From: Eledone cirrhosa
Taxonomy: Eukaryota
Reading direction: 5' to 3'
DNA length: 64,000 bases
Assembly: GCA_964016885.1 (NCBI GenBank)
Contig: OZ024740.1
Coordinates: 45,570,001-45,634,000, forward strand
Part shown: piece by piece, positions 265 through 36,965 of the stretch
How positions within the stretch are numbered: the stretch's first letter is position 1
Layout of the letters: every line of letters starts with the position of its first letter
The notes under the pieces: model-generated
Databases searched by the model: none
What the model was told of the DNA's origin: nothing
Seen by the model: the letters and a program-made list of their open reading frames with translations, nothing else
Translations under genes and position numbers: made by a program

Positions 265-720
265 TTTAGGAGATTAGTATCGGTGTACATATAACATAAA
301 AAAGACAGTAAATACCGGTGTGTGTGTTATAATAATGTTTTTACTTCATGGAAGTCAAAGGTATTAAATATTAAGGATTTGTTACCCGATGGTCATAACT
401 CGAGGCTGAAGTTGGTAGAGAAAAGAAGAGATCTTTTCTAGCTGGTATTGACATCTTAGGCTCTCAGGCTGCAAGTTGCATTGTTCTTGGTCGCGAAGGA
501 TTACCAAGAAGGAATCATCACAAGCTAAGGTCGCAGGTGTTACCACTTCGGAAATCGGGAAGCAAGAGAGAGATATCGTGGTAACCTGCTCCTTTTATAG
601 GAGTTGACCGGAAGTGACCAACAGGGAGTCTGTCAATCCCAAAGGGAAGCAACTCCAGCTACTTCCTGTCTAGAGAGCGGTGATGAGATTGACATGACAA
701 GGGAGGCAACTCTTGCTACA
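265..720 (-). repeat. 3' LTR (element orientation TGTAGC...CCTAAA)
   Basis: Direct repeat of 5443-5898. Preceded on the minus strand by the purine tract GGCGGGGGATAA (721-732). Confidence 0.95.
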
Positions 721-1329
721 TTATCCCCCGCCAGATTTTTAAAACATAAAAATCGAAAGAAGCATGCATGGAGTAAGATGGCGAGCATGTAAGAGGCATG
801 AAAATTATGGTACAAAGTAATAAAAGTACGAGAAGAGGTCAAAAGTTCAAATATCTAAAATACAGTTCACATGTGTGCAATCACATGACAGCAGTAAAGA
901 ATGTGTTCCAGAGAATGAATGCAGGTGGTTTCTGGTCTGTGGTATAACATGAAATTTCCAACTTCCGAAGGGAATTTCTCACAGGCAGAGTGCTGCAGAA
1001 ATAAATTGTCTGGCTTGTTCTGCTGGTTTTAGTTGTTGATGAAGCTGTGTTGTTGTTGATGATGTTGTGAATGCGTTGACCTGGAAGGGTCAAGAGGCCA
1101 GCGACCAGAGAAATAAGCATTCTTAATAAATGCGCGGTTTTCAACGGCAAATTTATGTGGTAAATTTATAAACCGGCAAATAGAAGAATATAGCTTAAAA
1201 TGTTCGTTGTAAAGGAAACGAAAAACATATATATACATCCAGTGAAATGGTAATGAGAGGTACATTGTAATACAATAAATCAATAAATAACAAGAACAGT
1301 AAAAAAAAAATATAAGGCCAATGGCCAGT

Positions 1330-4077
1330 TCACATAAAAATAGTTTGGCAGAACTTTTTGGGCCAGTGGACTCTCCGACCGGAACGGGTCGTAGTCTTGT
1401 ATGTAGGTGAAGGTGGGGCAGAAGGAGCAGGTGTATGCACAAGAGAGAAAGATTGGGGTATTTGTGGCTCGGGTGTATGAGCGTCATTGTGTGCCCTTTT
1501 CAGTCTATCCACCGAAATTGTCTCTCTGGACCCCTTAACGTCTACAGTGAAATGTTTGTCAGTGCGTGCTAACACACGGTAGGGTCCAGAGTATGGTTGT
1601 GTGAGGGGTGGTCTCACAGCATCGTTCCTTACGAACACATGGGTCCACGAGATGAGATGGGACTCGAATTGTCTACCACGGTCTGTGGTGAGTGTAGTTG
1701 GTACCCCAAAGCGGGTAATCCACCCTGATACCAGGGCACGTGCTACAGTCTCAGCAGTCATGTCTTGTAAAGGGATGGCTTCAGGCCATCGCGAAAAACG
1801 ATCGACACACATCAATATGTAAGAATATCCACTGCTGAATGGCCAAGGTCCAACGATGTCAATGTGGATGTGTTGAAACCGAGCATCTGGAGTACTGAAA
1901 GTACCAAGTGGAGTCCGGATGTGTCTATGGATCTTCGATTTCTGGCAAGCGATACAGGAACGGCACCAAGCAGCAATGTCGCGCCTCATATTTGGCCAGA
2001 AGAATCTGGCTGTTATGAGTTTAACTGTGGCAGCAGATCCTGGATGAGAAATGTTGTGCAAAGCCAGGAACACAATTCGACGGTGAGTCTCAGGAACAAG
2101 TGGCCGTGGTGCATCAGTGGATACATCACATAGAATCTGCCTGTCCATGGTGGACAAGGGCAGATATTTGAAAATGCAAGTCGCAAATTCAGTAGAAAGA
2201 GTGTCCAACGATTGGAGTGCAAGTTGGTCTGCAGCTAAACGACCTAAGTTGATCTCCTGGGATGATGAGATGGAGCTAATTGGCAAACGTGATAATGCGT
2301 CTGCAACTATGTTGTGCGAGCCGGCAATGTGCTGGATATCGTTTGTAAATTGTGAAACGTAGTCCAGGTGCCTTGTCTCTCTGGGCGAATATCTGTCGGC
2401 TTTGGCCCTCAAAGCGAAGGTCAACGGCTTGTGGTCGGTAAAAACCGTAAAATTTCTCCCCTCAAGAATATGAGAGAAATGTTTCACCGACAAATATATG
2501 GCTAATAACTCCCGCCCAAATGTGCTATAACGCGTTTCTGCTGGTTTCAACTTCCTCGAGAAAAATGCCAAAGGTTGTTGGTTTTCAGCGTAAGACTGCT
2601 GTAAAACTGCTCCCACAGCGGTATCAGATGCATCAACACAAAGCGAAAGCTTGGCCTCTGGTACCGGGTGGGCTAGCAAAGAAGAACCAGTGAGTGCTGT
2701 CTTGGCAGACTGGAAGTCCTGAAGCTGTCCTTGTGTCAAGGAAATGTCTTCATTCTTTTTACAACGATTTTTTAAAATGTCAGTAAGGGAAGATAGCCAA
2801 TTAGCACAATGAGGAATGAAACGCCTATAGAAATTGATTAGGCCTAAGAAGTGACGCAACAAGTGAAGTGTAGTAGGCGGAGGTAACTCTTGTATGGCTT
2901 GAACTCGCTGAGGGAGCGGCCTAATACCTTCGGCGTCGATGAGGTGGCCTAAAAAATGTAGGGAAGTGGAACCGAAAACACACTTTGCAGGATTCACGCG
3001 AACGCGGTAATCCTGAAGTCGCCGAAATAAGAGAAGCATGTGGCGTATATGCTCTTCTGGAGAGGAACTAGCGACGAGAATATCGTCTATGTAAGCATAA
3101 ACGAAGTCCAGACCACGCGTGACCTCGTCTATGAACCGCTGAAAAGTGCTAGTGGCGTTCCTGAGTCCAAAAGGCATGGGAAAAAATTCAAATGGAGCGA
3201 AAGGGGTTGTAATCGCCGTTTTCGGAATATCCTCCTTCCTGACCGGAATTTGGTGGTAGGCTCGCACTAAATCTAACTTAGAAAAAATCTTACACCCCTG
3301 CAGTGAAGATGCAAAATCGTGGAGATGGGGAATGGGATACCTATCCGGGACGGTCATGGCATTTAACCTCCTATAATCCCCAGTGGGTCTCCAGTCGCCG
3401 GAAGTCTTGGGCACCATGTGTAACGGTGAAGCCCAAGGACTCGTAGATGGGCGAATAATGCCCAGCTGCAGCATATGGTCAAACTCGGACCGTGCTGCCT
3501 TTAATTTTTCCGTCAGTAAGCGGCGTGGACGCGAAAACACTAGGGCACCAGTGGTGGAAACGAAATGTTCGGTCGAGTGTGTTGGGTCAGTGACTCGAAA
3601 ATTTCCATCCGTGAGCTCCGGGAAAGAACCCAGCAACGAATGGTAGGCGTCTCCAGCAGCAACAACAAAGAACATGGGGCTGACTATCGGAGCATTGGCT
3701 TCCTGGCCATGAATTGAAAAGCCGGTGATGTTATGCACCAGGTGTTGGCCACGGACGTCCACAGTTAAAGAGAAGTTGTGGAGGAAATCCGCTCCTAAGA
3801 TGGGATATGGCAAATCGGCAACCGTAAAAATCCACTTAAAATCCCTTCGAAGATTTAGGAATTTAAGAGGGAGTGAGATTTGCCCGTACGTCTTTATAGA
3901 CGAGTGGTTAACTGCCTGCAGCGTAACAGATGATTCTATGGGGGTATCTTTCAGGCAATGGACCGGCCAAATGCTACAGGAGGCTCCTGTATCCACGAGG
4001 AAACCTCTTCCGGACATTAGGTCCTTAATGAAGAAATGGCGGTTTGGTGGCTTTATGTTGAGGTCAACTGTCCCCAT
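1330..4077 (-). CDS. pol: pol polyprotein (aspartic protease, RT, RNase H, integrase with internal deletion)
   Basis: Protease FLVDTGA; RT YIDDIL; RNase H DAS...TDH; HHCC zinc finger; integrase HIDIVG...TDRG; GPY motif. The region carrying the catalytic E of DD35E is absent ([14 protein letters not shown]). Confidence 0.93.
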
Positions 4078-4088
4078 CAGAGGACCTC

Positions 4089-4875
4089 TTAGGCGTTTCC
4101 CGCCTTATGAAAGGAGCAAGGTTGCACGCAGCGATTCGCGTTCTCAGCAAATCGCTCGTGGTACCAGCATAGAGATGAAGCTGGTGATTTAGAACGCCGT
4201 CTAAAACTTTGCGATCTCCCGCGACTGCGGGGGCGCGAACAGCCACCACACAATGCCTTCATCTTGTGGAGCTCTATGGTGAGCTCCTGAATGGACCTCT
4301 GCATCGCTATAATGGTCGAGCTGTCTGTTGGCGCTGCCACGTAGATCGCATGGCCGTGTGTGGCCCGAGCTGGGTGGTGAACAGCGGCAAGGGGGTAGCT
4401 GCCTCCGGCATTCGTCACCTCAAAAACTTTGTCCGCAGATGCGGCAAGCTGATCCACCGTGCTTGTATCCCTCATGGGGGCCAAAATTGCCTGTACGTTG
4501 GTCGGCAGGCGCGAGAAGAACAACTGCTTCAGTTTCCGCTGCAGACCCCTCCGTTAGGTCCTTCATTCGCCTAAAGAGGTTCGATGGGGTGCCATCCCCT
4601 ATATGCTCCAGATGGACCAGAGCCCTAAATCTTTTTTCTGAAGACTATTCTGTCCGGCTGAGTATTTCAGCCTTCAGAGACGTGTACGACGAGTCTGTGT
4701 TTGCCTCTAACACGAGGTCCTTAACCGCTGGGAGAATTGCCGGCGGAATTGCGCTAAGGACCACAGAATGTTGTAGTTCCTCGTCAACTCTGTTCGCCCT
4801 GAAGAATGCTTCTAACTCTGAAAACCATAGCCTCACGTCGCCCGTGTACGTTGGCAGAACAGAGTGGGAAGCCAT
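4089..4875 (-). pseudogene. gag: gag of the Gypsy element, disrupted
   Basis: ORF pieces 4875-4645 (..DVRLWFSELEAFF..) and 4523-4089 (..FSRLPTNVQAIL..CWYH..C..PC). Premature TAG at 4647-4645, and the two pieces are in different frames. Confidence 0.85.
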
Positions 4876-5420
4876 TGGTATACCGCAGGCAATCTACCGT
4901 TTGGAAAAATGTCTCTAACGTAACAGAAAAGGAAAACAAAATTTTTCCGTCAGACCACTGGACCAGAAAAATAATGCATCCGGGACAATATGCAAACAAG
5001 CGATTAAGTGAATGCTGTTATACTAAGGTAAGGGCAAGGAACCTAAAAAAAAAAAAATCCAACATGGCGGACTATTTCGCGCCAAAAACACTATTGATGG
5101 AGAAGAGAGACTCCATCTTGTCATCCTCAAAAATGTTTAGCCAGAGAAGAGAAGAGCAGAAAAGGAGAGGAAAAAAAAAGGTAAAAACATTTATACAATT
5201 GCTGTTTGTCTGTATGTCAATAATTGTAGGTGTTCGTTTTGTATTGGTAACAAATCCTTAATATTTAATACCTTTGACTTCCATGAAGTAAAAACATTAT
5301 TATAACACAACACACCGGTATTTACTGTCTTTTTTTTCTGTCTTTCTTTTCTGTCTTTCTTTTTTTCTTCTTTATATTATATACACCGTATACCATTTCC
5401 CATTCTTTTTTTTTTTTTTA

Positions 5421-5441
5421 AAATCACGTCGGGGGTCACCA
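5421..5441 (-). promoter_or_regulatory. Primer-binding site complementary to the tRNA-Trp 3' end
   Basis: Plus strand aaatcacgtcgggggtcacca matches the eukaryotic tRNA-Trp 3' end (AAATCACGTCGGGGTCACCA) with one extra G. Confidence 0.88.
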
Positions 5442-5442
5442 C

Positions 5443-5898
5443 TTTAGGAGATTAGTATCGGTGTACATATAACATAAAAAAGACAGTAAATACCGGTGTG
5501 TGTGTTATAATAATGTTTTTACTTCATGGAAGTCAAAGGTATTAAATATTAAGGATTTGTTACCCGATGGTCATAACTCGAGGCTGAAGTTGGTAGAGAA
5601 AAGAAGAGATCTTTTCTAGCTGGTATTGACATCTTAGGCTCTCAGGCTGCAAGTTGCATTGTTCTTGGTCGCGAAGGATTATCAAGAAGGAATCATCACA
5701 AGCTAAGGTCGCAGGTGTTACCACTTCGGAAATCGGGAAGCAAGAGAGAGATATCGTGGTAACCTGCTCCTTTTATAGGAGTTGACCGGAAGTGACCAAC
5801 AGGGAGTCTGTCAATCCCAAAGGGAAGCAACTCCAGCTACTTCCTGTCTAGAGAGCAGTGATGAGATTGACATGACAAGGGAGGCAACTCTTGCTACA
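5443..5898 (-). repeat. 5' LTR
   Basis: Direct repeat of 265-720, followed on the minus strand by the PBS. Confidence 0.95.
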
Positions 5899-6054
5899 TA
5901 ACTAACTTTTTCATTTTTCATTTGGCGTTTGGAATATAACTTAACAAAGGTTCTTACATCATCATCATCCTCATTTTACGTCCGCTTTTCCCTGCTTGCA
6001 AGGGTGGGACGATAAAATTGTAATAGAAAGTTCTTTGATAAATCTACCCCATAT

Positions 6055-6975: not shown

Positions 6976-7509
6976 ATCTGGTGCTATAACAAAAAAGCAC
7001 ACATCATGCCTGTAAGACGGTCATGTTAGAAACATGAAAAAGCACCCAGTCAACCCTGTGAGGTCATCGTGCTGGTGACTTGGCAAAAATTACCCAGTCT
7101 ACCATGTTAGATAGTCGTTTTGGTACCACAGTACCCAGTCCAGACTAGTTGGCATTAAAAAGGGCACCTTGCCATAAAAACCAAGCCAAAATACAGATCT
7201 CTATGAGCAAGATATGGTCACCTGACCCAAATTATCTCATAACGTGACAACCTGTCAACTCATGCAAGTATGGAAAAATAGATTCTAAACGAAAATGATG
7301 TTGATAAACTCTTTAAAACAATTTTGTATTGTAAATCCAAGGTCAGTTAACTTGTTATAAATACAAGCTTAATAATGAGAAAGTCAGTTATATCATTAAA
7401 TTTGCCCAAATTCTTCATTATTTGCCAACTTAATTGAAATTTATAAGCAGTGTTTTTCATTAAAGATGTGGTAATGAAAGGGTTAATGAAATATTGAAAA
7501 ATCTCTGAC

Positions 7510-7592
7510 CTGTATTTCTCAGGGTACTCTCCATGACCTTTCAGTATACGGTAAAGTCGATCTTTATCAATACTTTCTTCCAATTCCTTGTC
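7510..7592 (-). CDS. TBC1D31: TBC1D31/WDR67 coding exon 9 (DKELEESIDKDRLYRILKGHGEYPEKYR), start of the TBC domain; gene continues left of the window
   Basis: cag|...AG|gtcag, phase 0 to 2. Matches the recalled vertebrate sequence LNKKRLQILLKGYGEYPTKYR. Confidence 0.9.
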
Positions 7593-8605
7593 CTGTAGTA
7601 GAAAGAAGAACAAAATACATGAGAACACAGTCCAAGTTTTACTGGTAGAACTAGAAACCATATATGATAGGACTGCAGCACCTATCATTAAAACACACAA
7701 GAAAGGTGCAATTTTATATGAGGTTGGTTAAACCTACATAGGTATGAGCCACAAGAACTAGAACCAAATTCATTTCTGACTTCTGTTTATTTCATAGCTT
7801 CTATTTCCTCATATTTAGACCTGTGGTTATTCAAATTTTTGCATGTGTATGTATAATATATATATATATAATTGTCAAGGCATGTGTTTTAGTGGTTGGA
7901 GAGTTGGATTCACAATTTAATTGGAATTATTGTCTTCCTTGATAAGCCATGCACCTCATTTACATACATTACATTTTAGGCATGGTTTCTGCAGCCAAAA
8001 CTTCCTATCACTAACCATTTTACAGTGTGCACTGGGTATATATTTATTAAAATATATAAATCATTGTCATTTAACATCTGTTTTCTTGGCTAACAATGCT
8101 GGACAGGTCATCACAGATAGAGTCAGTACTAAAATGGAGCTACTGACCTCTCAGATGGGCATCTTGCTTCTACCGAGTATTCAGATGAGCTGGGGACCCA
8201 CTTCTCACATATATTCCCATGCTCTACCAAGTGAATTTTATCATGTAGATCACCAATACTAGGGAGGTTGTCATTTATTTGAAAGAGCTGAAGAGTCCTC
8301 CCAACCCTTTGTTTGGCAGGTTTTCTATGGCTGGATGTGCTTCCTATCACCAACCATTTTACAGAATGTATTAGGTGCATCTTATCATGGCACCAACACT
8401 TGGAAGGTTGTTATGTCTTTGACACAGCTGAAGAGTCTCCACAACCCTTTGGTTGGCAGGTTTTTTATGGTTGGATACCCTTCCTATCACCAACCACTGA
8501 GTGTGTTTTATGATGTAGATCATCAACATCATAAACATTAATAAAATAAAATAAAATAAATATTTCCAGAATTTCTCTTATAGTTAAGTATATTTCTTAA
8601 CTTAC

Positions 8606-8710
8606 CTCTGAAGAATCGGTAGACAGCTTGTCTTTACTTTTACAACTACTCTTCATGGATTCCTCAAAAGACTTTGATTTTCTGACAGCTTTTACCACAG
8701 GTGGAGGAGG
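8606..8710 (-). CDS. TBC1D31: TBC1D31 coding exon 8 (PPPPVVKAVRKSKSFEESMKSSCKSKDKLSTDSSE)
   Basis: tag|CCT...GAG|gtaag, 105 nt, open, phase 0/0. Matches the recalled PPPPLVKV. Confidence 0.85.
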
Positions 8711-9046
8711 CTAGAAATGGGAGTTCAAAATTGTTATAATTAGCAGTAAAGTAAATATAAATATATAGTAATTAACCAAACAATGAATAAAAAATGATAG
8801 AATTCCTAAATCGAAATGAACCCTTTTGATATCAAGTTGTCTGAAACCCTGCCCTGGTTCTCTGACAAACTCATCACTATCATCATTTTTATGTCCACTT
8901 TCCATGCTGGCATGGGTTGGATAGGTTATCATGGTTCAAGACCAACCTCATCTCGCTCATATGCTCCATATTTAGCATGATTTCTATGACTGGATGTCAT
9001 TCCTAATGCCAACCATTTTACAGTGTGTACTGGGTTCATTTTTATG

Positions 9047-9174
9047 TTGACATGCCCAAATCAGATGTTTGTACCATGATAAAATGCACCTAGTCCACCC
9101 TGTAAATGGGCACATTTACAGGGTGGACTGGGTGCATTTTATCATGGTACAAACATCTGATTTGGGCATGTCAA
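9047..9174. repeat. Near-perfect palindrome, 62-bp arms, 4-nt loop
   Basis: ttgacatgccc...ctgtaaatg / ggca / catttacag...gggcatgtcaa, with one mismatch. Confidence 0.92.
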
Positions 9175-9783
9175 TATTTCAGACCTCATATGGAAGCAGT
9201 CATTGATGCTAATGGTGGATTCATTGAATGCATGTGTCAAGAAGACTCTCAAGATTATTCATGCTAATTTTTTCTCAAATAAACCTCTTCTTTCATGACC
9301 TATGTCTTTTACTAAATTCATGCAAGTGTCCTCAAAGAACTAAACAACCCTGTATGATAGAAACATTTACTATTATTTCACACATGTTGATGTATGAGCT
9401 TTTGGTTAAGAAGTTTGCTTCCCAATCATGTGGTGCCATTGAAAGAACTTTTAAGCAAGTGTTTCTACTACAGCCTCAGACCAAACCATACCTTGTGGGT
9501 GAAATTGGGTATTCAGAAAGTTTGTGGAAGCCCATTGAATGGACAGTATTTGTAAACTGATAGGCTCAGCTTTGCCACACAGTCACACTCATTCTGTCTG
9601 AGTTATTACCTTAAAGGTACAAGAGAATGTGGAATATTCAGCCACTAACAATATACAGAGTGCACTGGGTACATTTTATAGTAGCACCAGCATTAAATGA
9701 AAAGGATACATTGAACAATGTAGTCCTTGATAGACAAAGTTTGGATGGTCATTGCTGGAATGTCTGTGGTCATAGGGTTAAAT

Positions 9784-12700
9784 AACAACTCCAAACACTG
9801 TATGTTGAACAACAACAACAAACACTGTATGTTGAACAACAACAACAAACACTGTATGTTAAACAACAACAACAAACACTGTATGTTGAACAACAACAAC
9901 AAACACTGTATGTTGAACAACAATAACAAACACTGTATGTTGAACAACAACAACAAACACTGTATGTTAAACAACAACAACAAACACTGTATGTTGAACA
10001 ACAACAACAAACACTGTATGTTAAACAACAACAACAAACACTGTATGTTAAACAACAACAACAAACACTGTATGTTGAACAACAACAACAAACACTGTAT
10101 GTTGAACAACAATAACAAACACTGTATGTTGAACAACAACAACAAACACTGTATGTTAAACAACAACAACAAACACTGTATGTTGAACAACAACAACAAA
10201 CACTGTATGTTAAATAACAACAAAAAACACTATGTTGAACAACAATAACAAACACTGTATGTTGAACAACAACAACAAACACTGTATGTTGAACAACAAC
10301 AACAAACACTGTATGTTGAACAACAACAAAACAAACACTGTATGTTGAACAACAACAACAAACACTGTATGTTAAACAACAACAACAAACACTGTATGTT
10401 AAACAACAAACACTGTATGTTGAACAACAACAACAAACACTGTATGTTAAACAACAACAACAAACACTATGTTGAACAACAACAACAAACACTGTATGTT
10501 AAACAACAACAACAAACACTGTATGTTAAACAACAACAACAAACACTGTATGTTGAACAACAACAACAAACACTGTATGTTGAACAACAACAACAAACAC
10601 TGTATGTTGAACAACAACAACAAACACTATGTTGAACAACAACAACAAACACTGTATGTTGAACAACAACAAACACTGTATGTTAAACAACAACAACAAA
10701 CACTGTATGTTGAACAACAACAACAAACACTGTATGTTAAACAACAACAACAAACACTGTATGTTAAACAACAACAAACACTGTATGTTGAACAACAACA
10801 ACAAACACTGTATGTTGAACAACAACAACAAACACTGTATGTTGAACAACAACAACAAACACTGTATGTTGAACAACAACAACAAACACTGTATGTTAAA
10901 CAACAACAACAAACACTGTATGTTGAACAACAACAACAAACACTGTATGTTGAACAACAACAACAAACACTGTATGTTAAACAACAACAACAAACACTGT
11001 ATGTTGAACAACAACAACAAACACTGTATGTTAAACAACAACAACAAACACTGTATGTTGAACAACAACAACAAACACTGTATGTTGAACAACAACAACA
11101 AACACTGTATGTTAAACAACAACAACAAACACTGTATGTTGAACAACAACAACAAACACTGTATGTTAAACAACAACAACAAACACTGTATGTTGAACAA
11201 CAACAACAAACACTGTATGTTGAACAACAACAACAAACACTGTATGTTGAACAGCAACAAACACTGTATGTTGAACAACAACAACAAACACTGTATGTTG
11301 AACAACAACAACAAACACTGTATGTTGAACAACAACAACAAACACTGTATGTTAAACAACAACAACAAACACTGTATGTTGAACAACAACAACAAACACT
11401 GCATGTTGAACAACAACAGCAAACACTGTATGTTAAACAACAACAACAAACACTGTATGTTGAACAACAACAACAAACACTGTATGTTAAACAACAACAA
11501 CAAACACTGTATGTTAAACAACAACAACAAACACTGTATGTTGAACAACAACAACAAACACTGTATGTTGAACAACAATAACAAACACTGTATGTTGAAC
11601 AACAACAACAAACACTGTATGTTAAACAACAACAACAAACACTGTATGTTGAACAACAACAACAAACACTGTATGTTAAATAACAACAAAAAACACTATG
11701 TTGAACAACAATAACAAACACTGTATGTTGAACAACAACAACAAACACTGTATGTTGAACAACAACAACAAACACTGTATGTTGAACAACAACAAAACAA
11801 ACACTGTATGTTGAACAACAACAACAAACACTGTATGTTAAACAACAACAACAAACACTGTATGTTAAACAACAAACACTGTATGTTGAACAACAACAAC
11901 AAACACTGTATGTTAAACAACAACAACAAACACTATGTTGAACAACAACAACAAACACTGTATGTTAAACAACAACAACAAACACTGTATGTTAAACAAC
12001 AACAACAAACACTGTATGTTGAACAACAACAACAAACACTGTATGTTGAACAACAACAACAAACACTGTATGTTGAACAACAACAACAAACACTATGTTG
12101 AACAACAACAACAAACACTGTATGTTGAACAACAACAAACACTGTATGTTAAACAACAACAACAAACACTGTATGTTGAACAACAACAACAAACACTGTA
12201 TGTTAAACAACAACAACAAACACTGTATGTTAAACAACAACAAACACTGTATGTTGAACAACAACAACAAACACTGTATGTTGAACAACAACAACAAACA
12301 CTGTATGTTGAACAACAACAACAAACACTGTATGTTGAACAACAACAACAAACACTGTATGTTAAACAACAACAACAAACACTGTATGTTGAACAACAAC
12401 AACAAACACTGTATGTTGAACAACAACAACAAACACTGTATGTTAAACAACAACAACAAACACTGTATGTTGAACAACAACAACAAACACTGTATGTTAA
12501 ACAACAACAACAAACACTGTATGTTGAACAACAACAACAAACACTGTATGTTGAACAACAACAACAAACACTGTATGTTGAACAGCAACAAACACTGTAT
12601 GTTGAACAACAACAACAAACACTGTATGTTGAACAACAACAACAAACACTGTATGTTGAACAACAACAACAAACACTGTATGTTAAACAACAACAACAAA

Positions 12701-14187
12701 CACTGTATGTTGAACAACAACAACAAACACTGCATGTTGAACAACAACAGCAAACACTGCATGTTGAACAACAACAACAAACACTGCATGTTGAACAACA
12801 ACAACAAACACTGCATGTTGAACAACAACAACAAACACTGTATGTTGAACAACAACAACAAACACTGTATGTTGAACAACAACAACAAACACTGTATGTT
12901 AAACAACAACAACAAACACTGTATGTTGAACAACAACAAACACTGTATGTTGAACAACAACAACAAACACTGTATGTTGAACAACAACAACAAACACTGT
13001 ATGTTGAACAACAACAACAAACACTGTATGTTGAACAACAACAACAAACACTGTATGTTGAACAACAACAACAAACACTGTATGTTGAACAACAACAACA
13101 AACACTGTATGTTGAACAACAACAACAACAAACACTGTATGTTGAACAACAACAACAAACACTGTATGTTAAACAACAACAACAAACACTGTATGTTGAA
13201 CAACAACAACAAACACTGCATGTTGAACAACAACAACAAACACTGCATGTTGAACAACAACAACAAACACTGCATGTTGAACAACAACAACAAACACTGC
13301 ATGTTGAACAACAACAACAAACACTGCATGTTGAACAACAACAACAAACACTGCATGTTGAACAACAACAACAAACACTGCATGTTGAACAACAACAACA
13401 AACACTGTATGTTAAACAACAACAACAAACACTGTATGTTGAACAACAACAACAAACACTGTATGTTAAACAACAACAACAAACACTGTATGTTGAACAA
13501 CAACAACAAACACTGTATGTTGAACAACAACAACAAACACTGTATGTTAAACAACAACAACAAACACTGTATGTTGAACAACAACAACAAACACTGTATG
13601 TTGAACAACAACAACAAACACTGTATGTTGAACAACAACAACAAACACTGTATGTTGAACAACAACAACAAACACTGTATGTTAAACAACAACAACAAAC
13701 ACTGTATGTTAAACAACAACAACAAACACTGTATGTTGAACAACAACAACAAACACTGTATGTTAAACAACAACAACAAACACTGTATGTTGAACAACAA
13801 CAACAAACACTGTATGTTAAACAACAACAACAAACACTGTATGTTGAAGAACAACAACAAACACTGTATGTTAAACAACAACAACAACAAACACTGTATG
13901 TTGAACAACAACAAACACTGTATGTTGAACAACAACAACAAACACTGTATGTTGAACAACAACAACAAACACTGTATGTTGAACAACAACAAACACTGTA
14001 TGTTGAACAACAACAAACACTGTATGTTAAACAACAACAACAAACACTGTATGTTGAACAACAACAACAAACACTGTATCTTGAACAACAACAACAAACA
14101 CTGTATGTTGAACAACAACAACAAACACTGTATGTTGAACAACAACAACAAACACAGTATGTTGAACAACAACAACAACTCCAAACA
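9784..14187. repeat. 4.4-kb minisatellite, 24-bp unit (aacaacaacaacaaacactgtatgttg/a type), in TBC1D31 intron 7
   Basis: Tandem array seen directly. It is the source of the long QQQQTLYVE / NNNNKHCML / CCCCSTYSV ORFs. Confidence 0.97.
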
Positions 14188-14239
14188 TAGAAACAGATAT
14201 AAATGTAAATCATAGAGAATGGTGCCTAAATAGTTTTAC

Positions 14240-14440
14240 CTTATTTAGTTCTGATGTTAGAGCTGGAAGACTGTAAATATTCATATTGCAAGAATCCATT
14301 AAACCAATCAAATGTTTGCCCATAAGACTACTTGAAATACTGTGTATTCTTTGTTCTATGGTGCCAATATCAAAGAGGAGTTTACATGAGTGAATATCCA
14401 TGAACCTTGCAATACCATCTTGGCACAAGGCACCTAGGAT
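14240..14440 (-). CDS. TBC1D31: TBC1D31 coding exon 7 (ILGALCQDGIARFMDI...LTSELNK)
   Basis: cag|ATC...AAG|gtaaa, 201 nt. Matches the recalled VLGVLSQDGIMRFINMQTCKLLFEIG. Confidence 0.92.
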
Positions 14441-16145
14441 CTGAAAGAAACAAAACATTCATAAATTATTGTTGGTGAAGAACTGGAAAAAATAGAGAGG
14501 TAAGTTATTTTTTGTGGCAATGTAGGGATTCTCTCTCTGTGTAGAGGGTAGATTATATGCTGCCTGTGTATAATGTACAATGTCATGTTGCATGGCTGTG
14601 AGACATGGGTATAGAATACAGAGGATGTGCAATGACTGGAAATAAATAAATTGAGCATGCTTTGTTTGAAATGCAATGTTAGTATGCTTGAATTATGTAG
14701 CACAGGTGAATTGCGAGAAAAACCGGGTATAAGAGAAACCAGATGTAACGTGCAGAAGAGAAGATTGTGCTGGTATGGACATGTAATGCATTCATGTTGG
14801 TGAGTGATTGATGGTGAAGTGCCAAGGCTTCTAAGTGAAAGGAAGCTGCAGAAGAAGAAGACTGAGTCAAAGGAGGAAGATGAATGACTGCGACCTTTAC
14901 AAAGACCCCATAACTGGTGGGAAGAAAGAGGTACCTACAGGCCAGGTGGTGATATTATACTGAGCATGGAAATGAATGAACTTCCACCAGTTTCAACGAT
15001 GAGTGTTCTAGTTGTTCAATCAAGGTAACAGCCTGCTTGTAAAATTAATATGTAAGTGGCTGAGCATTTCACAGATATGTGTACATTTAACATAATACTC
15101 AGAGAGATTTAGTATGACACAGTGTGTGATGAGGCTGACCCTTTGAATTACAGGGACAATTCTTCCAACAGGCTTCTACACAGTTTCTACCTACTAAATT
15201 TAATCCACAAGGCTTAGGTTGATCCAAAGCTATATTAAAAGACACTTGCTCAGTGGAATGAACCTTGACACCTCATGATTGCAAAGCAAACTTCTTAACC
15301 AGAGATCTGCTTAGCCACTGCTGACCTGGTGTTCACCATCATCATCATCACCATATGTCCGTCTTCCCTGCTAGCAAGTGTTGGACAGGTCATCCCAGAC
15401 TAAGACAGTATTCAATTGGAGCATCCAACCTCTCAGACGGGTTGGGGCCAGCAGCTCACTTACATATATTCCTGTACTGTACTGGGTGAATGTTATCATG
15501 ACACCAGCAGTAGGGAGGCTGTCATGTCTTTGAGACAACTGAAGAGTCCTCTTGAGCTTTAGATCGACAAGTTTTCTATGGCTGGATGCTTTTCCTATCA
15601 CCAACCACTTTACAGAGTATATGTGCATTTTATCATGTCATCAACACTAAAGAGGTTGTCATGTTGTTGATACAACTGAAGTCCTCTCAACCCTCCTCAT
15701 TATTTTACATCCATTTTCCATGTTGGTATGGGCTGGACAGGCTGTCACAGACCTGAACTAGATGGGTCAGAGAATCACATCTTGCTCATATGTTCCATTT
15801 TTGGCATGGTTTTTACAGCTGGATGTCCTTTCTACATTCAATATAATAATTATTTCTAACATTGGCACCTGGCCAGCAAGTTGGGGGAAGGGGAAAGTGG
15901 ATTATATTGACCCCACTACATAACTGGTACTTTATTTTATCAACCCTGGAAGGATGAAAAGCAAAGTTTACCTCAGTATGATTTGAACTCAGAATGTAGG
16001 AAATCGTAACTAAATCACAAAGTATTTTGTCCAATGCTCTACTGGTACTGTCAATCCACCACCAACATAACAACAAAAACAAGAATAGCAACAGCAACAA
16101 CAACAATATGGCTTTAAATGTTAGGAATAATTTGTTATTACCAAC

Positions 16146-16305
16146 CTTATTTGATCCCTTATCAAAACTATCCGAGAGAAAGATGAGCTGTTTCACCAGG
16201 GTAACCTTGCTAGGTAACTCTATCACTCGGAATAAGGTATGTGTATCTAAGGCAAACAGGTTTATAAATCTTGAGTGACCTGCAGCTGCCAATGTACGAC
16301 TGCTC
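16146..16305 (-). CDS. TBC1D31: TBC1D31 coding exon 6 (SSRTLAAAGHSRFINLF...SDSFDKGSNK)
   Basis: cag|G...AAG|gttgg, 160 nt, phase consistent with neighbouring exons. Matches the recalled FLPDSFDAGSNQ. Confidence 0.92.
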
Positions 16306-16461
16306 CTGGTAAAAATATTTATAGAAATTGTGAAAAATCATATTTAACCCTTTCATGATAGTATTTCTAATTAAATGCTTTGTATTTCAAGTAATTAATG
16401 AAGAATTTGGGAAGAATTAACTAAAATTATAATTTTATTAAAATCATATTTGTAACATATG

Positions 16462-16805
16462 AAAGCACATGGCTTAGTGGTTAGAGTGTTGGGTATGCAA
16501 TCATGAAGTTATGCGTTTGATTCCCAGAACCAGGTGAAGCATTGTGCGCTTGAGCAAGACACTTTATTTCACATGGCTCCAGTTTACTCAACTGTAGAAA
16601 TGAGTTGCGATGTCACTGGTGCCAAGCAGTGTCAGCCTTTGCCTTTCCCTTGGACAACATTAGTGGTGTAGAGAGGGGAGGCTGGTATGCATGGGCAACT
16701 GGTGGTCTTCCACAAACAACTTTGCCTGGACTTGTGCCTTGGAGTGGAACATTCTAGGTGCAAATCCAATGGTCATTCTTGACCGAAAGCAGTCTTTACC
16801 CTTAT
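16462..16805 (+). mobile_element. tRNA-derived SINE (same head and core as 19985, different tail)
   Basis: A-box TGGCTTAGTGG, degenerate B-box, core cttgagcaagacactttatttcaca. Confidence 0.7.
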
Positions 16806-17192
16806 CCTTCATTTGTAACATAACTAAATGTTCTTATACAAAATTATGTTGGCAAGTTTTAATTTAAATAGAAACAGAGGCAGTTATAGACACGTTGGTA
16901 TCAAAATTGTTAAATAAAATGAACATTTTAATGATTTGTTATTTTTTTATGCAAAGGAGTGTGGCCTAGTGATTTGTAAGGTCTTGGATTTGTTTTCTAA
17001 ACCAGGTTGTGTGTAGTGTCATTGAGCAAGATACTTCATTTCACGTAGCTCCAGTCCACTCAAAAGTAGCTAGGTGTTAAACCTGACCAACCCACCACAA
17101 TTGACCAGTATAAACGGGTGGGTAGGTAGGCCAAAAAAATCAGTATAGTTGCTGAGGTTTGCCACTACAGGTGACTGAAGTGCTGATGGGTA

Positions 17193-17243
<51 letters not shown>

Positions 17244-17888
17244 CAGGATTAAATCAGTATTAAACTAGTTAGACCATTATTCAACAGAGTACTTGATATA
17301 TGGGATAGAAGAACTAGCTGTTGAAACAGCAAGAGCTCAGCTGTTGGGCCCAAACTCTTTCTAATATATATCTATATATCAAGGAAAATGATGAAGTTTC
17401 GTTTACATGTAGTTAGTTTTTTATTGTGTATCAACCTGTTATGTGCATTTCACAGGGGATTGGGTCAAGGTCACTCATACAAGTTATGGATCTGACTCCA
17501 TTATTGATATGCTCATCAAACTGGTGATTCGACGAAAAATTGAATTATAAATGGAGTTAGCCATTTAAGTCATATATATCAAGATATGGATAAGCTCAAT
17601 GTATTATAATTATCTGCAATCATGCACTAATTGATACATTATATATATGTGTGTGTGTATATATATATATATAGTCATCACCATTTTACATTTATTTTCT
17701 ATCCTTAAAACAGCGATGCTACTGCTGCTGATTATGATGGTGGTGGTGATGGTGATGCTGATGCTGCTAGTGATGATGATAATAATGATGATAAGGATGA
17801 TGGTGATGATAATGCTAATAATGATGGTGATGAAGCTGATGGTGATGTTGATGATTTGTTTTTGTAAAAAATACCAAAAGTTTCTTAC

Positions 17889-18037
17889 CTTGTGGAAGCA
17901 AGGGTTTTGTATTTAGTTTTCTTTCCTGGTGGAATTGGTAGTTCAAATTTACAGGTGAGTGTTTCAAGATCCCAGCCAAATATTGAATCATCTTTGAAAC
18001 ATGTAATAATAATATTACTGAGAGGTAGGAAAAACAC
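17889..18037 (-). CDS. TBC1D31: TBC1D31 coding exon 5 (VFFLPLSNIIITCFKDDSIFGWDLETL...KTLAST)
   Basis: cag|GTG...AG|gtaag, 149 nt. Matches the recalled VFFLPLSNTILSCFKDNSIFAW. Confidence 0.92.
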
Positions 18038-18690
18038 CTGAAACAGGTAATAATGATATTACTGAGAGGTAAGAACACATGAGACAGGTAATAATAATAT
18101 TACTGAGAGGTAGGAAAAACACCTGAAACAGGTAATAATGATATTACTGAGAGGTAAGAACACATGAGACAGGTAATAATAATATTACTGAGAGGTAGGA
18201 AAAACACCTGAAACAGGTAATAATGGAAGTATTAATGAGAAGTAAGAAGAACACCTGAGACAGGTGTTACTGAGAGAGACAGGTAATAATGATATTACTG
18301 AGAAGTAAGAAGAACACTTGAGACAGGTAATTATGATATTACTGAGAGGTAAGAAGAACACGAGACAGGTAATAATTGTTTCTATTTTAGGCACAAGGCC
18401 AGCAGGTAATAATGGAGGTATTAATGAGAGGTAGGATGAACACCGGAGACAAGTAATAATGGAGATATTAATGAGGTAGATAGAACACCTGAGACAGGTA
18501 ATAATAGAGGTATTAATGAGAGGTAAGAATACCTGAAGCAGGTAATAATAGAGGTATTAATGAGAGGTAAGAAGAATACCTGAAGCAGGTAATAATGGAG
18601 GTATTAATGAGAGGTAAGAAGAATACCTGAAGCAGGTAATAATGGAGGTATTAATGAGAAGTAAGTAGAACACCTGAAATATTAATCAGT
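18000..18690 (-). repeat. 41-45-bp minisatellite made of the TBC1D31 exon 5 start plus acceptor AG
   Basis: Minus-strand unit cagGTGTTTTTCCTACCTCTCAGTAATATYATTATTACCTGTTT. 85-bp dimers lie near the exon and more diverged copies lie distally. Confidence 0.93.
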
Positions 18691-18803
18691 GTTAAATTGA
18701 AAGTGACTGAATAAAACATATATGGGAATGAAGTACAATTTAGAATATGATTTGCATACAAATTAATATATAAATATAATTAATAGTTTCATCTATAAAC
18801 ATG

Positions 18804-18833
<30 letters not shown>

Positions 18834-18836
<3 letters not shown>

Positions 18837-19024
18837 TGTTTCTACTTTTGGCACAAGGCCAGCAATTATCCCAGTGTATTACTGGTACTTTATTTTATCG
18901 ACCCCGTAAGGATGAAAGGCAAAGTTAACCTCGGCGGGATTTGAACTCAGACCATAAAGGGCCGTAACTCTTTGCTGCAAAGCATGGCGTCCGACCCTCT
19001 ACCGATACTGCCAATCCACCGCCC
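18834..19024 (-). mobile_element. tRNA-derived SINE family B. Other copies at about 15855-16065, 20910-21465 (three), 27492-27640, 34289-34468, 43220-43420, 45685-45830, 50030-50437, 53547-53730, 63281-63437
   Basis: Minus strand GGGCGGTGGATTGGCAGTATCGG (A box)...GAGTTCAAATCC (B box)...tgtgccaaaagtagaaacaattattatt tail. Many dispersed copies in this window. Confidence 0.85.
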
Positions 19025-19169
19025 TTATAATAATGATAAGAATAATAATGAAATTATTGTGTACAGTGCTCATGTGCACTACAACTAATTATTTTCATGT
19101 GTAGATACACATTTATTTCCACACACACACACATAATTATGTAATGATTTTCATATTTAAATACAGATC

Positions 19170-19413
19170 GTGTAGGTGTCACGACAAAAAAACACACAGT
19201 CCACACTGTAATGTGGCTGTGTAGGTAACACGGTAAACAGTTCCCAGTCCACACTGTAAATGTGGTTGGCGTTAGGAAGGGCATCCAGCCGTAGAAAACC
19301 TGCCAGATAGTCCTATATGAGCGAGACACGGTCACCCGACCAACCTTGCCTCAAGTGGGAGAACTCCCGTCTAACCCATGCTAGCGTGGAAGATAGACGT
19401 TAAACGATGATGA
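19170..19413 (+). mobile_element. RTE LINE 3'-end fragment
   Basis: Similar to 6740-6970, with cccgtctaacccatgctagcgtggaa and a (GAT)n tail. Confidence 0.75.
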
Positions 19414-19954
19414 TACAGTAACAGTGACAGCAACTGCCATGGCATCAATGCCAACTACAGGTATTACCAGTAGTAACTACGACAGCACCAGCAAGAACAT
19501 CACTGGGAAGGGCTCTGATATTATATTTGTGGGTAGGTGATAGTTATTGTCATTGACACTGATGGACGTTGTCATTACCATTGCTGTCATTATTCTCAAG
19601 ATTATTGTTAATGTTATTATTGTCATCTTTATATACATAGGTATAAATGATGATGTGTTCAAACGCATAGATGCTATAAGATAGCTTATAAAATAGAGAG
19701 AAGAGCCTTAAAAGATGGAAAAAGAAGTTGCCATCTTCTTTTAAGGGTTTTCACCCTATTACAACTATTTCATCTGACGAATGGGCTGGACATTTCTATA
19801 AGGATCGTCAAGTTTCTTGAAACCTTTGCTAATAGAATAATTATATTGTGTTGTTTATTATGTAATTAAATAGCTCTGTACTATACATGGAGTACTCTTC
19901 TTTCTTTTACCTTTTCTACGGAAATACTTAACATTTAACATACACACACCACAC

Positions 19955-19984
<30 letters not shown>

Positions 19985-19985
<1 letters not shown>

Positions 19986-20308
19986 GAGGCACATGGCTTA
20001 CTGGTTAGAGCATTGGCCTTGCAATCGAAAGGTTGTGAGTTCAATTCTCAGACCGGGTGATGTGTTGTTTCCTTGAGCAAGACACTTTATTTCACATTGC
20101 TCCAGTTTACTCAGCTGTAGAAATGAGATGATAGGGACTGAGGTCCCACTGTAAAGTGGTCGGGGAGGTGCCACGAAAAAAAAGCACCCAGCACTCACTG
20201 TAAATGAGGTTGGTATTAGGAAGGGCATCCAGCTGTAGAAATCAAGCCAGAATCAGTTCCCGTCCCACCCTTGCAAGCAGGGAAAAGCGGACGTAAAATG
20301 ATGATGAT
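19985..20308 (+). mobile_element. tRNA-derived SINE family A with RTE-derived 3' tail. Other copies at 23568-23898 (-), 26405-26667 (-), tail only at 5957-6011 (-)
   Basis: A box TGGCTTACTGG and B box GAGTTCAATTC. The 3' part matches the LINE 3' UTR at 6780-6860 and ends in (GAT)n. Confidence 0.88.
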
Positions 20309-21962
20309 ATATATATACACACATATCTTAGCGCTTAAAAGTCCGAAAATTCGGCTTACATACATTGATTATCATCTTTATTTGACTGATGCAAATAACA
20401 CCTGTTATTGTCGTCATCATCATCATCATATAACATCTGGATTGTTATTGCACGATAAAATGTACCTAGTACACCCATAAAGTAGTTGGTAATTGGAAGG
20501 GCACCCAGCTGTAGAAAAACTGCTGAATAAAGGGTTGAGAAAACTCTTCAGTTGTATCAAAGACGTGATGACCTCTCTAGTGCTGGTGCCACAATTTAAG
20601 CACCAGGTACACTCTGTATAGTGCAGGAACATATGGAAGTGAGGTGCAGTCCCTGGCTAATTTAAGAGAGCATTGGCTCTGATTAAATACTGACATAGTA
20701 CGTGATGACCTGTCCAATCCTTGCTAGCAGGGAAAACATATGTTAAATGACGATAATGATGATGACTGCTATAATTATTGCTGTTGCTGTGGATGCTGCC
20801 ATTGTTGGTATTGGTATCATGATACTGGTCATGTGTCATGATAATAGATCCATACCAGCATAGAAAAACTGACCATCATTATTATTATTGTTATCAGTAA
20901 TATTGAATTGATAGAATTGTTAGAGTGTTGGACAAAATACTATTATTTAGCAAAATACTAGTATTTAGCTATGGCTCTTTACAGTCTGAGTTCAAATCCT
21001 GCCATGATTAATTTTGCCTTTCGTCCTTCCGGGGTCGATAATAAAATACCCGTAATGTACTGGGGTCAATTTAATTGACTTATTTTCCCCCCACCCAAAT
21101 TACTGGCCTTGTGCCTAAATTAAAAACAATTATCATTTTTTAAAGTTTTGAGTTCAAATCCTGCCAAGGTTAGCTTTGCCTTTCATCCTTAAAGAGTCGA
21201 TAAAATAAAGTACCAGTAACACACTGGGATTGATTTAATTGACTTTCTCCCCTCCCCAAATTATTAGCCTTGTACCTAAATCAGAAACCATAATTATCAT
21301 CATAGGGTGGTTGGTTGATAGCATCAGTAGAGCATCAGACAACATTTTTTTGTGGCATATAGTTATGGCTCTTTAAGTTCTGAGTTCAAATTCCATTCAA
21401 GTTAACATTACCTTTTATTCTTACAGGGTCGATAAAATAAAGTACCAGTAATGCACTGGGGTCGATTAAACACTAGCATTTACATTATATATACTATTGT
21501 ATATAGGCTTTATTTCACATATCGAATCTATGAGATTTTGATATTATTTATTTTGAGAACAATACCTTAACATCAGTATGAGCAGCTGATTACAGCCAGT
21601 TTGAACAGAAAGAGGTGAGAGAATTTTGGCCAGATATAGCCGGTTTAAATGCTAAAGGGTTAAACCCCCCCTCCCCCCCCCCAAAAAAATTGTTGGTCTT
21701 GTGCCGAAACCAGAAACCATCATTATTATCAGTAATATTGTTATTATTTTTATTAATAAGCAATATTGTTGTTCCCTTCACAATGGGAAATGAATATTAC
21801 CATTATTTTTATGTCCATTTTTCTATGCTGGGTTTGGATGATTTGTTACAAAGTTTTACAGCAGGATGCTATTCCTGATGCCAACACTTTAACACTTTTA
21901 GTCACTTTAAAAAGAAAAAATATATATTTTAAAAAAACTGTACAAAACACACCATAACATAC

Positions 21963-22141
21963 CTCAGTAATGTTGATACTTTCACTAATATTTAACTTTT
22001 TTAGTTGCTGAAATTTCTCCAGGTTCCAAAGAAGAGCATCATCCACTGATACAGTGATAGCAAATTTACCACTAGCATGTACTGAGATGTTATTGATTGC
22101 TGTTTGATGGCCTCTCATTTCAGCAACTAATTCTTTGGTTT
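21963..22141 (-). CDS. TBC1D31: TBC1D31 coding exon 4 (TKELVAEMRGHQTAINNISVHASGKFAIT...SINITE), WD40 repeat
   Basis: tag|AA...GAG|gtatg, 179 nt. Matches the recalled TKELVSWMRGHESSVFSISVHASGKYAIT. Confidence 0.93.
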
Positions 22142-22189
22142 CTAAATATTAATTGCAAAAGCACAATAAAATTATCAGTTTTCAAATTA

Positions 22190-22381
22190 CCGTATATACT
22201 CAAGTATAAGTTGACCCCACTATTATATGTCTGAGAAATGGGCAAAAAATCCAAACCTTATTTGTGTAGAATTTGAAGTTGGTGAAAATTGTCAAAATAT
22301 TGACCCCAAATATAAGCTGAACCCCTTCTACCATCAAATTTTTGGTCACATATTCCTTGGCTTATATTCAAGTATATACAG
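22190..22381. mobile_element. Tc1/mariner-type MITE
   Basis: TIRs ccgtatatactcaagtataag / cttatattcaagtatatacag, flanked by TA on both sides. Confidence 0.75.
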
Positions 22382-24041
22382 TACTAACCTCACCTTTATT
22401 TTAAAAAAATACACCCTGTACACTCTGTAAAGTGTTTGACATTAGGAAGGGCATTCAACTGTAGAAATCATATCAAATAAGGGTAAAAACGACTATTTAA
22501 CTATGTGAAGGACATGACAACTTTCCTAGCATTGATGCCACAATAAAATACACCTAGTACACTCTGTAAAGTGGTTGGCATTAGGAATAGGAAGGACATC
22601 CTATTGTACAAACCATGTCAAACAAAGGTAAAGAGCACTCTTTAGTCATGCCAAGGACATAGCAACCTTCCTAGTGTTGATGCTATAATAAAATACACCC
22701 AGTACACTCTGTAAAATGGTTGGTATTTGGAGGAACATCCTTTCCATATTGGCATTGGTTGGATGTTACAGACCAAGTCCTTACTTATCAGAGATACTAT
22801 ATTATTGGCTCAACATGTTTCATTTTGACATGTTTTCCACAGCTGGATGTTTTTTGTAATGTTAACCACTTTACAGAGTGTACTGGGTGTATTTTATCAT
22901 GATATCAGCACTAGTAAGGTTATCATATCCTTAACATGACTGAAGAGTCCTGTCTATACCTTGTGGCATGGTTTCTATAGTTGGATACCCTTCCTAGTAC
23001 CTTCCCTCAAGGTTTTAAAATGTCCTTTACAACAGAAAAAACAAAAGCAATTTAATTACACATAGACCTTAGTATTGTACCGATTATCTGACAACAACAC
23101 AAAAGAGGTTGTAATATTCTTGACATAACTGAAAAGTCCTCTCTAACCTTTTTTTGGCCTGTGGCATGGTTTTTACAACTCGGTACCCTTCCTAACACTA
23201 ACCTCTTTAGAGTGTACTGGGTGTATTTTATATCACCAGGATTAGGAAAGTTGTCACTTGATGTACATGATGTACATGATGTACATATGTGACTTGATGT
23301 GACAGAATTCTTCTCTACACCTTTTTGGAATGGTTTCTACAACTGGATGCCTTTCCTAATGCCATCAAGATTTGAAAATATACTTTTTAATAGAAAAAAA
23401 AAGGGAAAGCACCTGGTTGTCAGATCAAACCATGGAAACAATGTTTCCATAGGTCTTTTTATTGCTGTTACTATCTGCCAGTCGCAGAAGAAACAACGTG
23501 AAATAAAATATAGAAAATAGTTTTTTTTTGTTTTGAGAGATCTACAACAATGCAAATAGAACATTATATCATCATCATTTCATTTTACGTCCGCTTTTCC
23601 CTGCTTGCAAGGGTGGGACGGGAACTGATTCTGGCTTGATTTCTACAGCTGGATGCCCTTCCTAACACCAACCTCATTTACAGTGACTGCTGGGTGCTTT
23701 TTTGCCGTGGCACCTACACGACCACTTTGCAGTGGAATGATAGGGACTGGGGTCCCTATCATCTCATTTCTACAGCTGAGTAAACTGGAGCAATGTGAAA
23801 TAAAGTGTCTTGCTCAAGGAAACAACACACCACCCAGTCTCAGAATTGAACTCACAACCTTTCGATTGCAAGGCCAATGCTCTAACCACTAAGCCATGTT
23901 ACAAATAATAACAAAGATTGATGTGTTCAAGAGGTGAGATGCTATAAAACATGGTGTTTGTTGACATTTAAAAGTTGTGATTCCACTATCTAATTTAAGA
24001 TGGTAAGATTTGTTATGGTCCCTTAGCATAATGGTTTAAAG

Positions 24042-24259
24042 CAGGCATGTCAAACTGAGGGTTCCTGAGGGCCACAGGGGTCACATATGTGTAGTCTGAG
24101 GGCCACACATGACAACTAATTGTGCGCACATTATAACTATTTATTTTAATTTTATATTAAAGATAAAACATGCTCACTCTGTAAAAATATTTGTGCGGGC
24201 CACAGATGAGCTTGTAAAGGGCCACATGTGGCCTGCGCACTGCATGTTTGACATGCTTG
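24042..24259. mobile_element. hAT (Charlie-like) MITE
   Basis: TIRs caggcatgtcaaac / gtttgacatgcttg. Perfect 8-bp TSD GTTTAAAG (24034-24041, 24260-24267). Confidence 0.9.
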
Positions 24260-24487
24260 GTTTAAAGTACCTAGCTGGTATCTGGGAGATATGGGATTCA
24301 ATTCCACGAGTGACCCTCGGAAGTGTCCGCCCTATTAGGGAATTTTCCTTTGTTTCAATTTTTTGTTACTTCCTTTGTTATTATTTTCATTTACACACAG
24401 AAATGCCCATTTGTATCGTCCTGTACTGTCCAGTGCTGTCCTTAATGTTATACCTTATGTCAACCCTTGTGGTTAATAAAGAAAGCA

Positions 24488-25478: not shown

Positions 25479-25575
25479 GGAATAGTCTGCCATAGCTACA
25501 AGAAACTCTGTCTTTTTCTTCAAGCTGAAAGTAAGAGCTGTTGGTGGGATTTTCGTCTTTTTCACCAACGTGAAC
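25460..25575 (-). CDS. TBC1D31: TBC1D31 coding exon 3 (FTLVKKTKIPPTALTFSLKKKTEFLVAMADYSLHCYDI)
   Basis: cag|G...ATAG|gtaat, 116 nt, phase 2 to 1. Matches the recalled SEFLVALADYSIKCFD. Confidence 0.92.
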
Positions 25576-28224: not shown

Positions 28225-28271
28225 CTACAAAAGAAGAGAAACATATACCCAGTGTGAAAGGTGTTAGAAAA

Positions 28272-36900: not shown

Positions 36901-36965
36901 TTGAAAGTGTCCATTTATTACTAGAAACATACTACTAGAAGAAATAGTACACGAAAATGTTACTT

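Follow-up and report, generated by a model that had tools for sequence, protein, structure and literature searches.

The DNA analysed here (the window) is a stretch of 64,000 nucleotides from Eledone cirrhosa. It contains the exons for the first part of TBC1D31 and an LTR retrotransposon, whose features are listed in Table 1. TBC1D31 exons were mapped with the Octopus sinensis protein, to which they are mostly about 90% identical, and they run along the minus strand from 37335 to 7509, bearing out an earlier reading of the locus (the sequence-only reading), which had described element and host gene as co-oriented. With the later TBC1D31 exons lying outside the window, we can only infer that the element is in the intron following the residue-410 exon.

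Table 1. Coordinates of the retrotransposon, its hairpin and the host gene in the window.
Feature	Position	Strand	Remarks
Host gene TBC1D31, exons for residues 1-410 of 952	7509..37335	minus	Upstream of element, co-oriented
Target-site duplication TAAC	5899..5902 and 261-264		4 bp
5' LTR	5443..5898	minus	456 bp, TGT...AAA ends
TATA-like box	5769..5777	minus	Transcription start predicted near 5748
LTR arm of long stem	5476..5564	minus	Predicted R/U5 border region
AGTAAA, candidate poly(A) signal	5518..5523	minus	Arm centre
CA run (candidate cleavage site), then U/GU-rich tract (candidate downstream element)	5466..5505	minus	Putative role
Inner stem, LTR side	5455..5478	minus	
tRNA-Trp-type primer-binding site (PBS)	about 5423-5441	minus	One C longer than in L004
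Inner stem, leader side, degenerate	5371..5393	minus	1 mismatch, 2 small gaps
A-rich bulge	5336..5370	minus	Two extra AAAGACAG copies derived from inner unit of arm
Leader arm, antisense copy of LTR 5476-5564	5246..5335	minus	
Leader remainder	4876..5245	minus	Five more AUGs, pyrimidine tracts, acceptor-like AGs at 5043, 5023, 4915
gag, broken	4091..4875	minus	Three pieces, different frames; CX2HX9CX3C motif
pol	1330..4104	minus	Protease motif, RT, RNase H, integrase
Polypurine tract	723..732	minus	
3' LTR	265..720	minus	456 bp; same poly(A)-like signals; no arm downstream

The two LTRs are identical at 454 of 456 positions (2 differing sites). The pol order is PR-RT-RH-IN: RT, RNase H and integrase are recognized by Pfam, with a DTG motif ahead of them, and the CX2HX9CX3C (CHCC) Gag motif is found in frame 4553-4091. 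The integrase is approximately 128 residues short relative to P0001, the best relative (66% identity); other Pol matches include a Clonorchis sinensis polyprotein (P0119, 55% identity). Near-identical LTRs combined with a broken gag and a shortened integrase point to a recently inserted, non-autonomous copy.

Minus-strand positions 5441-5423 correspond to the tRNA-Trp PBS motif given in the accessible text of PMC2582038 and to the PBS of relatives such as L004. According to the same text, the CsRn1 clade (CsRn1, PwRn1, AgCR, Kabuki) is marked by a tRNA-Trp-type PBS, a CHCC Gag motif, a 4-bp target-site duplication and LTRs with TGT...AAA/ATA ends, all as here. Judged by these four marks, the element is classed as a CsRn1-type Ty3/gypsy retrotransposon, and apart from its arm it is an ordinary member of that type. 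CsRN1 elements are frequent in cephalopods (PMC6238403, accessible part). The extra base in the C run of the PBS is also seen in L009, L015 and L017, and a bulged primer site may be tolerated in the CsRn1 clade.

The inverted arm and its hairpin

Between the PBS and gag, the leader carries an antisense copy of part of the LTR. The 90 nt of this arm and the 89 nt of its LTR counterpart share 89 matches, the sole difference being a 1-nt indel within a TG/CA microsatellite (blastn E about 1e-38). The sequence-only reading had recognized both the reverse-complement match and the single indel, and had set the end of the arm at 5336 instead of 5335. The local alignment of arm and LTR scores 173, whereas 300 shuffles average 21 and reach at most 32, and the folding z for 5236-5574 is -23. 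Two other elements of that reading were recovered: an imperfect inner extension beyond an interruption, with one mismatch and two gaps, and the position of the PBS within the hairpin loop. Its description of the arm as a copy of the LTR end is correct as to LTR origin but not as to the exact end, as the main arm stops 33 nt before the LTR end (5443) and the inner arm approximately 12 nt before it.

Folding gives a duplex of about -138 kcal/mol that starts approximately 12 nt from the PBS. The 89-bp stem includes 64 A residues and zero G-U pairs. Its LTR partner is the 5' LTR alone, as the 3' LTR has no arm behind it. As had been proposed, the host pre-mRNA should also contain the hairpin, and the stem is unusually long. 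The Rfam search returned no match at the gathering score, only four weak generic-hairpin matches far below it. An assembly artefact is unlikely, given the distinct loop, the decayed inner part and the depth from independent runs that crosses 5246 (discussed below). A second long hairpin is expected in the same pre-mRNA: window positions 9044-9177, in a TBC1D31 intron, hold an inverted repeat of 65 nt (97%) around a 4-nt loop.

Relatives, other copies and the age of the arm

The sequence-only reading had suggested looking for the arm in related families and in other copies of the same family. For the former, 93 Pol-related loci were collected, 79 from the best 80 of 613 metagenome matches and 14 from genome contigs. 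Forty-one of the 93 are testable, having a PBS match flanked by 125 nt or more upstream and 400 nt or more downstream, and these represent 32 distinct LTR ends. An LTR-like inverted arm is present in 0/41 testable loci: the best LTR-versus-leader scores are 15-26, within the null range. Five further loci, tested from the LTR end, score 18-22; the other 47 of the 93 fall outside this test. No matches to Pol, to the alignment or to the arm motif were found in viral contigs.

The leaders of relatives are also mostly far shorter than the one described here. The distance from PBS to Gag motif is 587 nt here, compared to a median of 123 nt and to 206 nt or less in 30/31 relatives with a motif found by motif search; the remaining relative is at 733 nt. 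The absence of the arm and the short leaders of relatives mark the arm as belonging to a leader expanded in this lineage, not to the clade at large.

One relative, L064, has the 5' start of its LTR copied in inverted form (64 nt, 98%; 4224-4287 and 4418-4481) directly behind its 3' LTR, followed by a short tandem array. This repeat was rejected as a parallel to the arm since it copies the LTR 5' start and sits behind the 3' LTR; it may be an aberrant end or a mis-assembly. LTR-bounded CsRn1-like elements were also observed in contigs labelled as bacterial/archaeal MAGs (L080, L081, L083), and these are probably host animal DNA within those bins.

Other copies of the family were assessed by read depth in four runs: contigs X1 and X2 from one sample, contigs X4 from another and RAD reads X5 from another study. 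The family is multi-copy, with most records 90-95% alike. At 4818, 4886, 5735 and 5739, all X1 and X2 depth has another letter; the exact copy in the window is therefore absent from X1 and X2. Depth in X1, X2, X4 and X5, respectively, is 1197, 1063, 56 and 2.0 at 5173-5215 and 442, 577, 48 and 2.1 at 5216-5258, so that the outer arm junction at 5246 is crossed in 4/4 runs. Further in, depth is 0, 178, 0 and 0.77 at 5259-5301 (2/4 runs) and 0 at 5302-5387 in 4/4 runs, with 5324-5424 masked. Among the five joints listed, none skips the arm; 275 loose ends lie beyond that listing. These depths are suggestive of other family copies carrying the outer junction of the arm, while presence of the arm family-wide is not established because of the masking and because arm reads can be placed on the LTR. 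The check suggested earlier thus has a mixed outcome: the arm is absent from the testable related families and probably present, on suggestive depth, in other copies of the element's own family. In the same leader, depth at 5044-5129 rises to 3432 in X1, versus 348 and 492 in the flanks. This segment, which bears what we take to be E2F-like and YY1-like motifs, may be common to other families or may be an internal promoter.

The arm is likely to be older than the current insertion. The leader side has accumulated three inner-stem events plus one indel and two unit duplications, versus 2 LTR-LTR substitutions in 456 bp. This excess suggests that the hairpin predates insertion and has passed through reverse transcription, an argument from sequence comparison that is weakened by the fast mutation of repeats. 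Mismatched positions number 1/90 in the outer arm versus 4/24 in the inner (p = 0.007, with boundaries chosen post hoc). The better match of the outer arm fits selection, repeated correction or a two-step origin; in the last case, an old short stem would have seeded a recent fold-back. The sequence of the arm is that of strong-stop DNA, and exactly such a layout would be expected from plus-strand snap-back or from a switch of the growing minus strand to its own 5' end.

The main rival to the reading preferred below is a tolerated by-product, in which a fold-back template switch occurred in one sub-lineage and was then copied along without benefit. We consider this account somewhat unlikely, although several lines of evidence are in its favour. 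The arm is missing in 41/41 testable related loci, the copy is non-autonomous, and the 89/90 match of the arm to its own LTR, in a family whose records are mostly 90-95% alike, fits a recent origin. Strong-stop DNA does self-prime by fold-back in vitro (PMC6088434, accessible part). Long near-perfect inverted repeats also arise nearby by accident (9044-9177), and L064 has an inverted LTR piece, albeit in another geometry. Two observations speak against a by-product: persistence is implied by the decay of the inner stem and by the unit duplications, and the depth of other copies crosses the outer junction. A 90-bp duplex near the PBS should furthermore be costly to replication, yet this RNA was recently reverse-transcribed. 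If the arm is a mere by-product after all, it would still plainly record a past fold-back template switch and be of modest interest.

Candidate functions of the arm

The LTR side of the hairpin coincides with sequences resembling a poly(A) site. AGTAAA is the sole one of 13 tested hexamers to occur downstream of the TATA box in the LTR, and the arm covers this hexamer, the CA run and the U-rich tract. Folding predicts that these are accessible before the arm is transcribed (unpaired 0.40 for the hexamer, 0.91 for the CA run and 0.38 for the tract) and almost completely paired afterwards (0.0, 0.0 and 0.1). In the 3' LTR context, the corresponding values are 0.37, 0.72 and 0.52. The arm is transcribed 130-280 nt after the poly(A)-like signals.

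An inverted poly(A) signal placed downstream reportedly blocks processing in engineered constructs, as Chao et al. are said to have found in 1999. Where the poly(A) signal of a retroelement lies in R, its 5' copy has to be suppressed; a hairpin is one of the means by which HIV-1 achieves this, and the MMTV poly(A) signal is AGUAAA (PMC12789967, accessible text). The same text indicates that suppression without a hairpin is possible, through cap proximity or a weak signal.

Our preferred reading, which we hold tentatively and at something below even chances, is that the arm is a fold-back product of reverse transcription that has been retained as a cis-antisense mask of a candidate 5' poly(A) site. 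The arm would have arisen through a fold-back template switch in reverse transcription, either by the minus strand copying its own strong-stop DNA or by plus-strand snap-back. In the nascent RNA, the leader arm would zip onto the 3' region of the LTR before cleavage, and the duplex would hide the candidate AGTAAA signal, presumed to be in use, in the 5' LTR only. Full-length RNA would thereby escape premature 3'-end cleavage. Template switching or selection would maintain the match of the outer 90 bp, and the inner stem would be left to decay. As the partner strand is outside the LTR and beyond the PBS, such a mask would by its layout act at the 5' end alone.

Masking of the 5' LTR poly(A) site was absent from the sequence-only reading and is the best fit to the position of the arm. 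Several observations temper it. Among shuffled arms, 29% hold one of three common hexamers, so that the overlap with AGTAAA is weak evidence alone. AATAAA occurs within the last 125 nt of the LTR in just 5/41 relatives. With 0/41 relatives having the arm, the clade manages without it, and the gag and integrase defects of this copy mean that its leader need not be under selection. The stronger statement that an octopod retrotransposon family has a cis-antisense arm as its answer to the two-LTR poly(A) problem, with a 90-bp inverted copy of the R/U5 border beyond the PBS locking the 5' site alone and template switching keeping it in step with the evolving LTR, is rather doubtful.

A different role would be that of a replication tether. 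The arm, freed by RNase H removal of 5' R/U5, would pair with 3' R and draw the two RNA ends together for minus-strand transfer, and its DNA complement could likewise aid the second transfer. If cleavage occurs near 5500, approximately 65 nt of the arm target are in R and recur at the RNA 3' end (about 322-386); an analogous end pairing, CYC5-CYC3, is required by Ty1 (PMC4974528, accessible part). However, having the sequence of strong-stop DNA, the arm would be its competitor; pairing with 3' R would first require displacement of the local 5' duplex (-138 kcal/mol), and relatives have no arm. We regard a tether as improbable.

The sequence-only reading had itself proposed three functions: a priming or translation switch, a self-silencing siRNA hairpin and an ADAR substrate. 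None of these is positively supported. A duplex of -138 kcal/mol located about 12 nt from the PBS looks more like an obstacle to strong-stop synthesis than an aid to priming. Tf1/sushi elements have a PBS complementary to the 5' end of their own RNA instead of to a tRNA. Self-priming of this type was rejected, as the PBS here is of the tRNA-Trp type and the arm is not over the predicted 5' end.

Translation enters through a related possibility, in which the arm sorts RNA for either packaging or translation. In this scheme a donor-like GG|GTAACA would be hidden at the stem base, the PBS kept from being spliced out and scanning blocked, with gag read from spliced or shunted RNA. The donor-like site (5563) lies at the stem base and is fully paired in folding, and the predicted leader has 16 upstream AUGs as well as acceptor-like sites, one of which precedes the gag AUG by 40 nt. 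There is also a 4-codon uORF that terminates at the base of the stem, and beyond the stem comes an A-rich stretch. The donor matches the consensus weakly, however, and there is no GT-AG joint on the element strand among the listed joints, in runs that are not on record as RNA. As to translation, three AUGs precede that of the uORF (at 5574) when counted from the predicted start; the uORF stop falls among the first 5 bp of the stem, and the stem is followed by five further AUGs. Ribosome shunting was rejected on this basis: the configuration differs from that of CaMV, and the translation switch proposed earlier gains no support from it. We regard sorting as quite improbable.

The double-stranded character of the stem is the basis for the other two proposals. 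Whether in element RNA or in TBC1D31 pre-mRNA, the hairpin could be a self-limiting source of siRNA or an ADAR substrate. In favour are the prediction of a near-perfect 89-bp duplex, the co-orientation of the host gene and the widespread editing of repeats and introns in cephalopods (PMC9068888, accessible part). Zero G-U pairs in 89 bp with 64 A nevertheless indicate that the founding RNA left no editing trace in the stem, so that the idea of an ADAR substrate finds no inherited editing there. Editing would moreover be a consequence of the duplex and leaves the position of the arm unexplained. We judge a dsRNA role to be very improbable.

If masking of the 5' poly(A) site is the function of the arm, it bears on a problem, suppression of the 5' LTR poly(A) site, that has been little studied beyond a few retroviruses: a long antisense arm placed beyond the LTR would solve it simply and, through its layout, at the 5' end alone. 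It would also follow that a retroelement RNA with a 90-bp duplex by its primer site can be reverse-transcribed and carries no inherited editing, despite the very active ADAR of this lineage.

Known leader structures and other features of the window

The arm is a new variant of LTR-leader pairing, with a putative function. One analogue under the masking reading is the HIV-1 poly(A) hairpin, in which RNA structure hides a poly(A) signal occurring at both element ends, as proposed here. The HIV-1 hairpin is short and local and is able to form in both LTRs; the partner strand here, in contrast, is outside the LTR, beyond the PBS, and pairs over approximately 90 bp. The construct of Chao et al. was artificial, with the inverted poly(A) region shortly downstream, whereas here the arrangement would be natural and in a mobile element.

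Pairing between U5 and leader across the PBS has retroviral precedents. In RSV, U5 pairs with the leader across the PBS, and retroviral U5-leader stems are short. The stem described here is approximately 110 bp and probably reaches into R. In pairing across the PBS, the inner 24-nt stem resembles the RSV U5-leader stem. A further retroviral structure of this kind is the U5-IR loop, mentioned in PMC3601003. The accessible text of PMC5902531 describes a CaMV/RTBV leader that resembles the present one in several respects: its stem is large, its ascending arm bears the poly(A) signal (here the candidate AGTAAA), it contains uORFs, and the stem is followed by an A/U-rich stretch. In the same pararetroviruses the PBS is downstream of the stem, whereas here it is in the loop and the arm is an inverted LTR copy; the shunt uORF there is 5'-proximal and ends ahead of the stem, a configuration that differs from the one here. 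A final comparison is with Ty1, whose CYC pairing is short and has no known 5' partner; the nearest partner of the arm is the 5' LTR itself. In CYC5-CYC3, sequence downstream of the PBS is complementary to sequence near the 3' end, as is the arm (PMC4974528, accessible part).

In the literature covered, in which subscription papers are thinly represented, no long antisense LTR copy was found described for a Ty3/gypsy leader. The accessible portions of PMC3601003, bioRxiv 10.1101/825315, PMC12801592 and PMC9935383 describe none, and the readable supplements of PMC6238403 contain neither of two searched motifs.

The window has several other repeats and coding remnants. Positions 17990-18700 are a tandem array of 85- and 47-nt units that includes several partial copies of a TBC1D31 exon start (18040-17888, about residues 175-198), and these may add decoy splice acceptors. 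A 27-nt satellite of approximately 160 copies (9650-14230) reaches the TBC1D31 exon at 14240-14443. On the plus strand, antisense in a TBC1D31 intron, positions 29934-32687 hold a LINE-type frame of 918 codons, encoding endonuclease and RT and showing a PHD-finger match. A GIY-YIG domain match at 47746-48342 (plus strand) is possibly a Penelope-like fragment. Two weak matches to the transglutaminase C-terminal domain (59629-59802 and 63590-63844, minus strand) are possibly duplicated exons of a neighbouring gene. The region 55000-58000 is a nearly G-free tract with a GC content of 7-13%.
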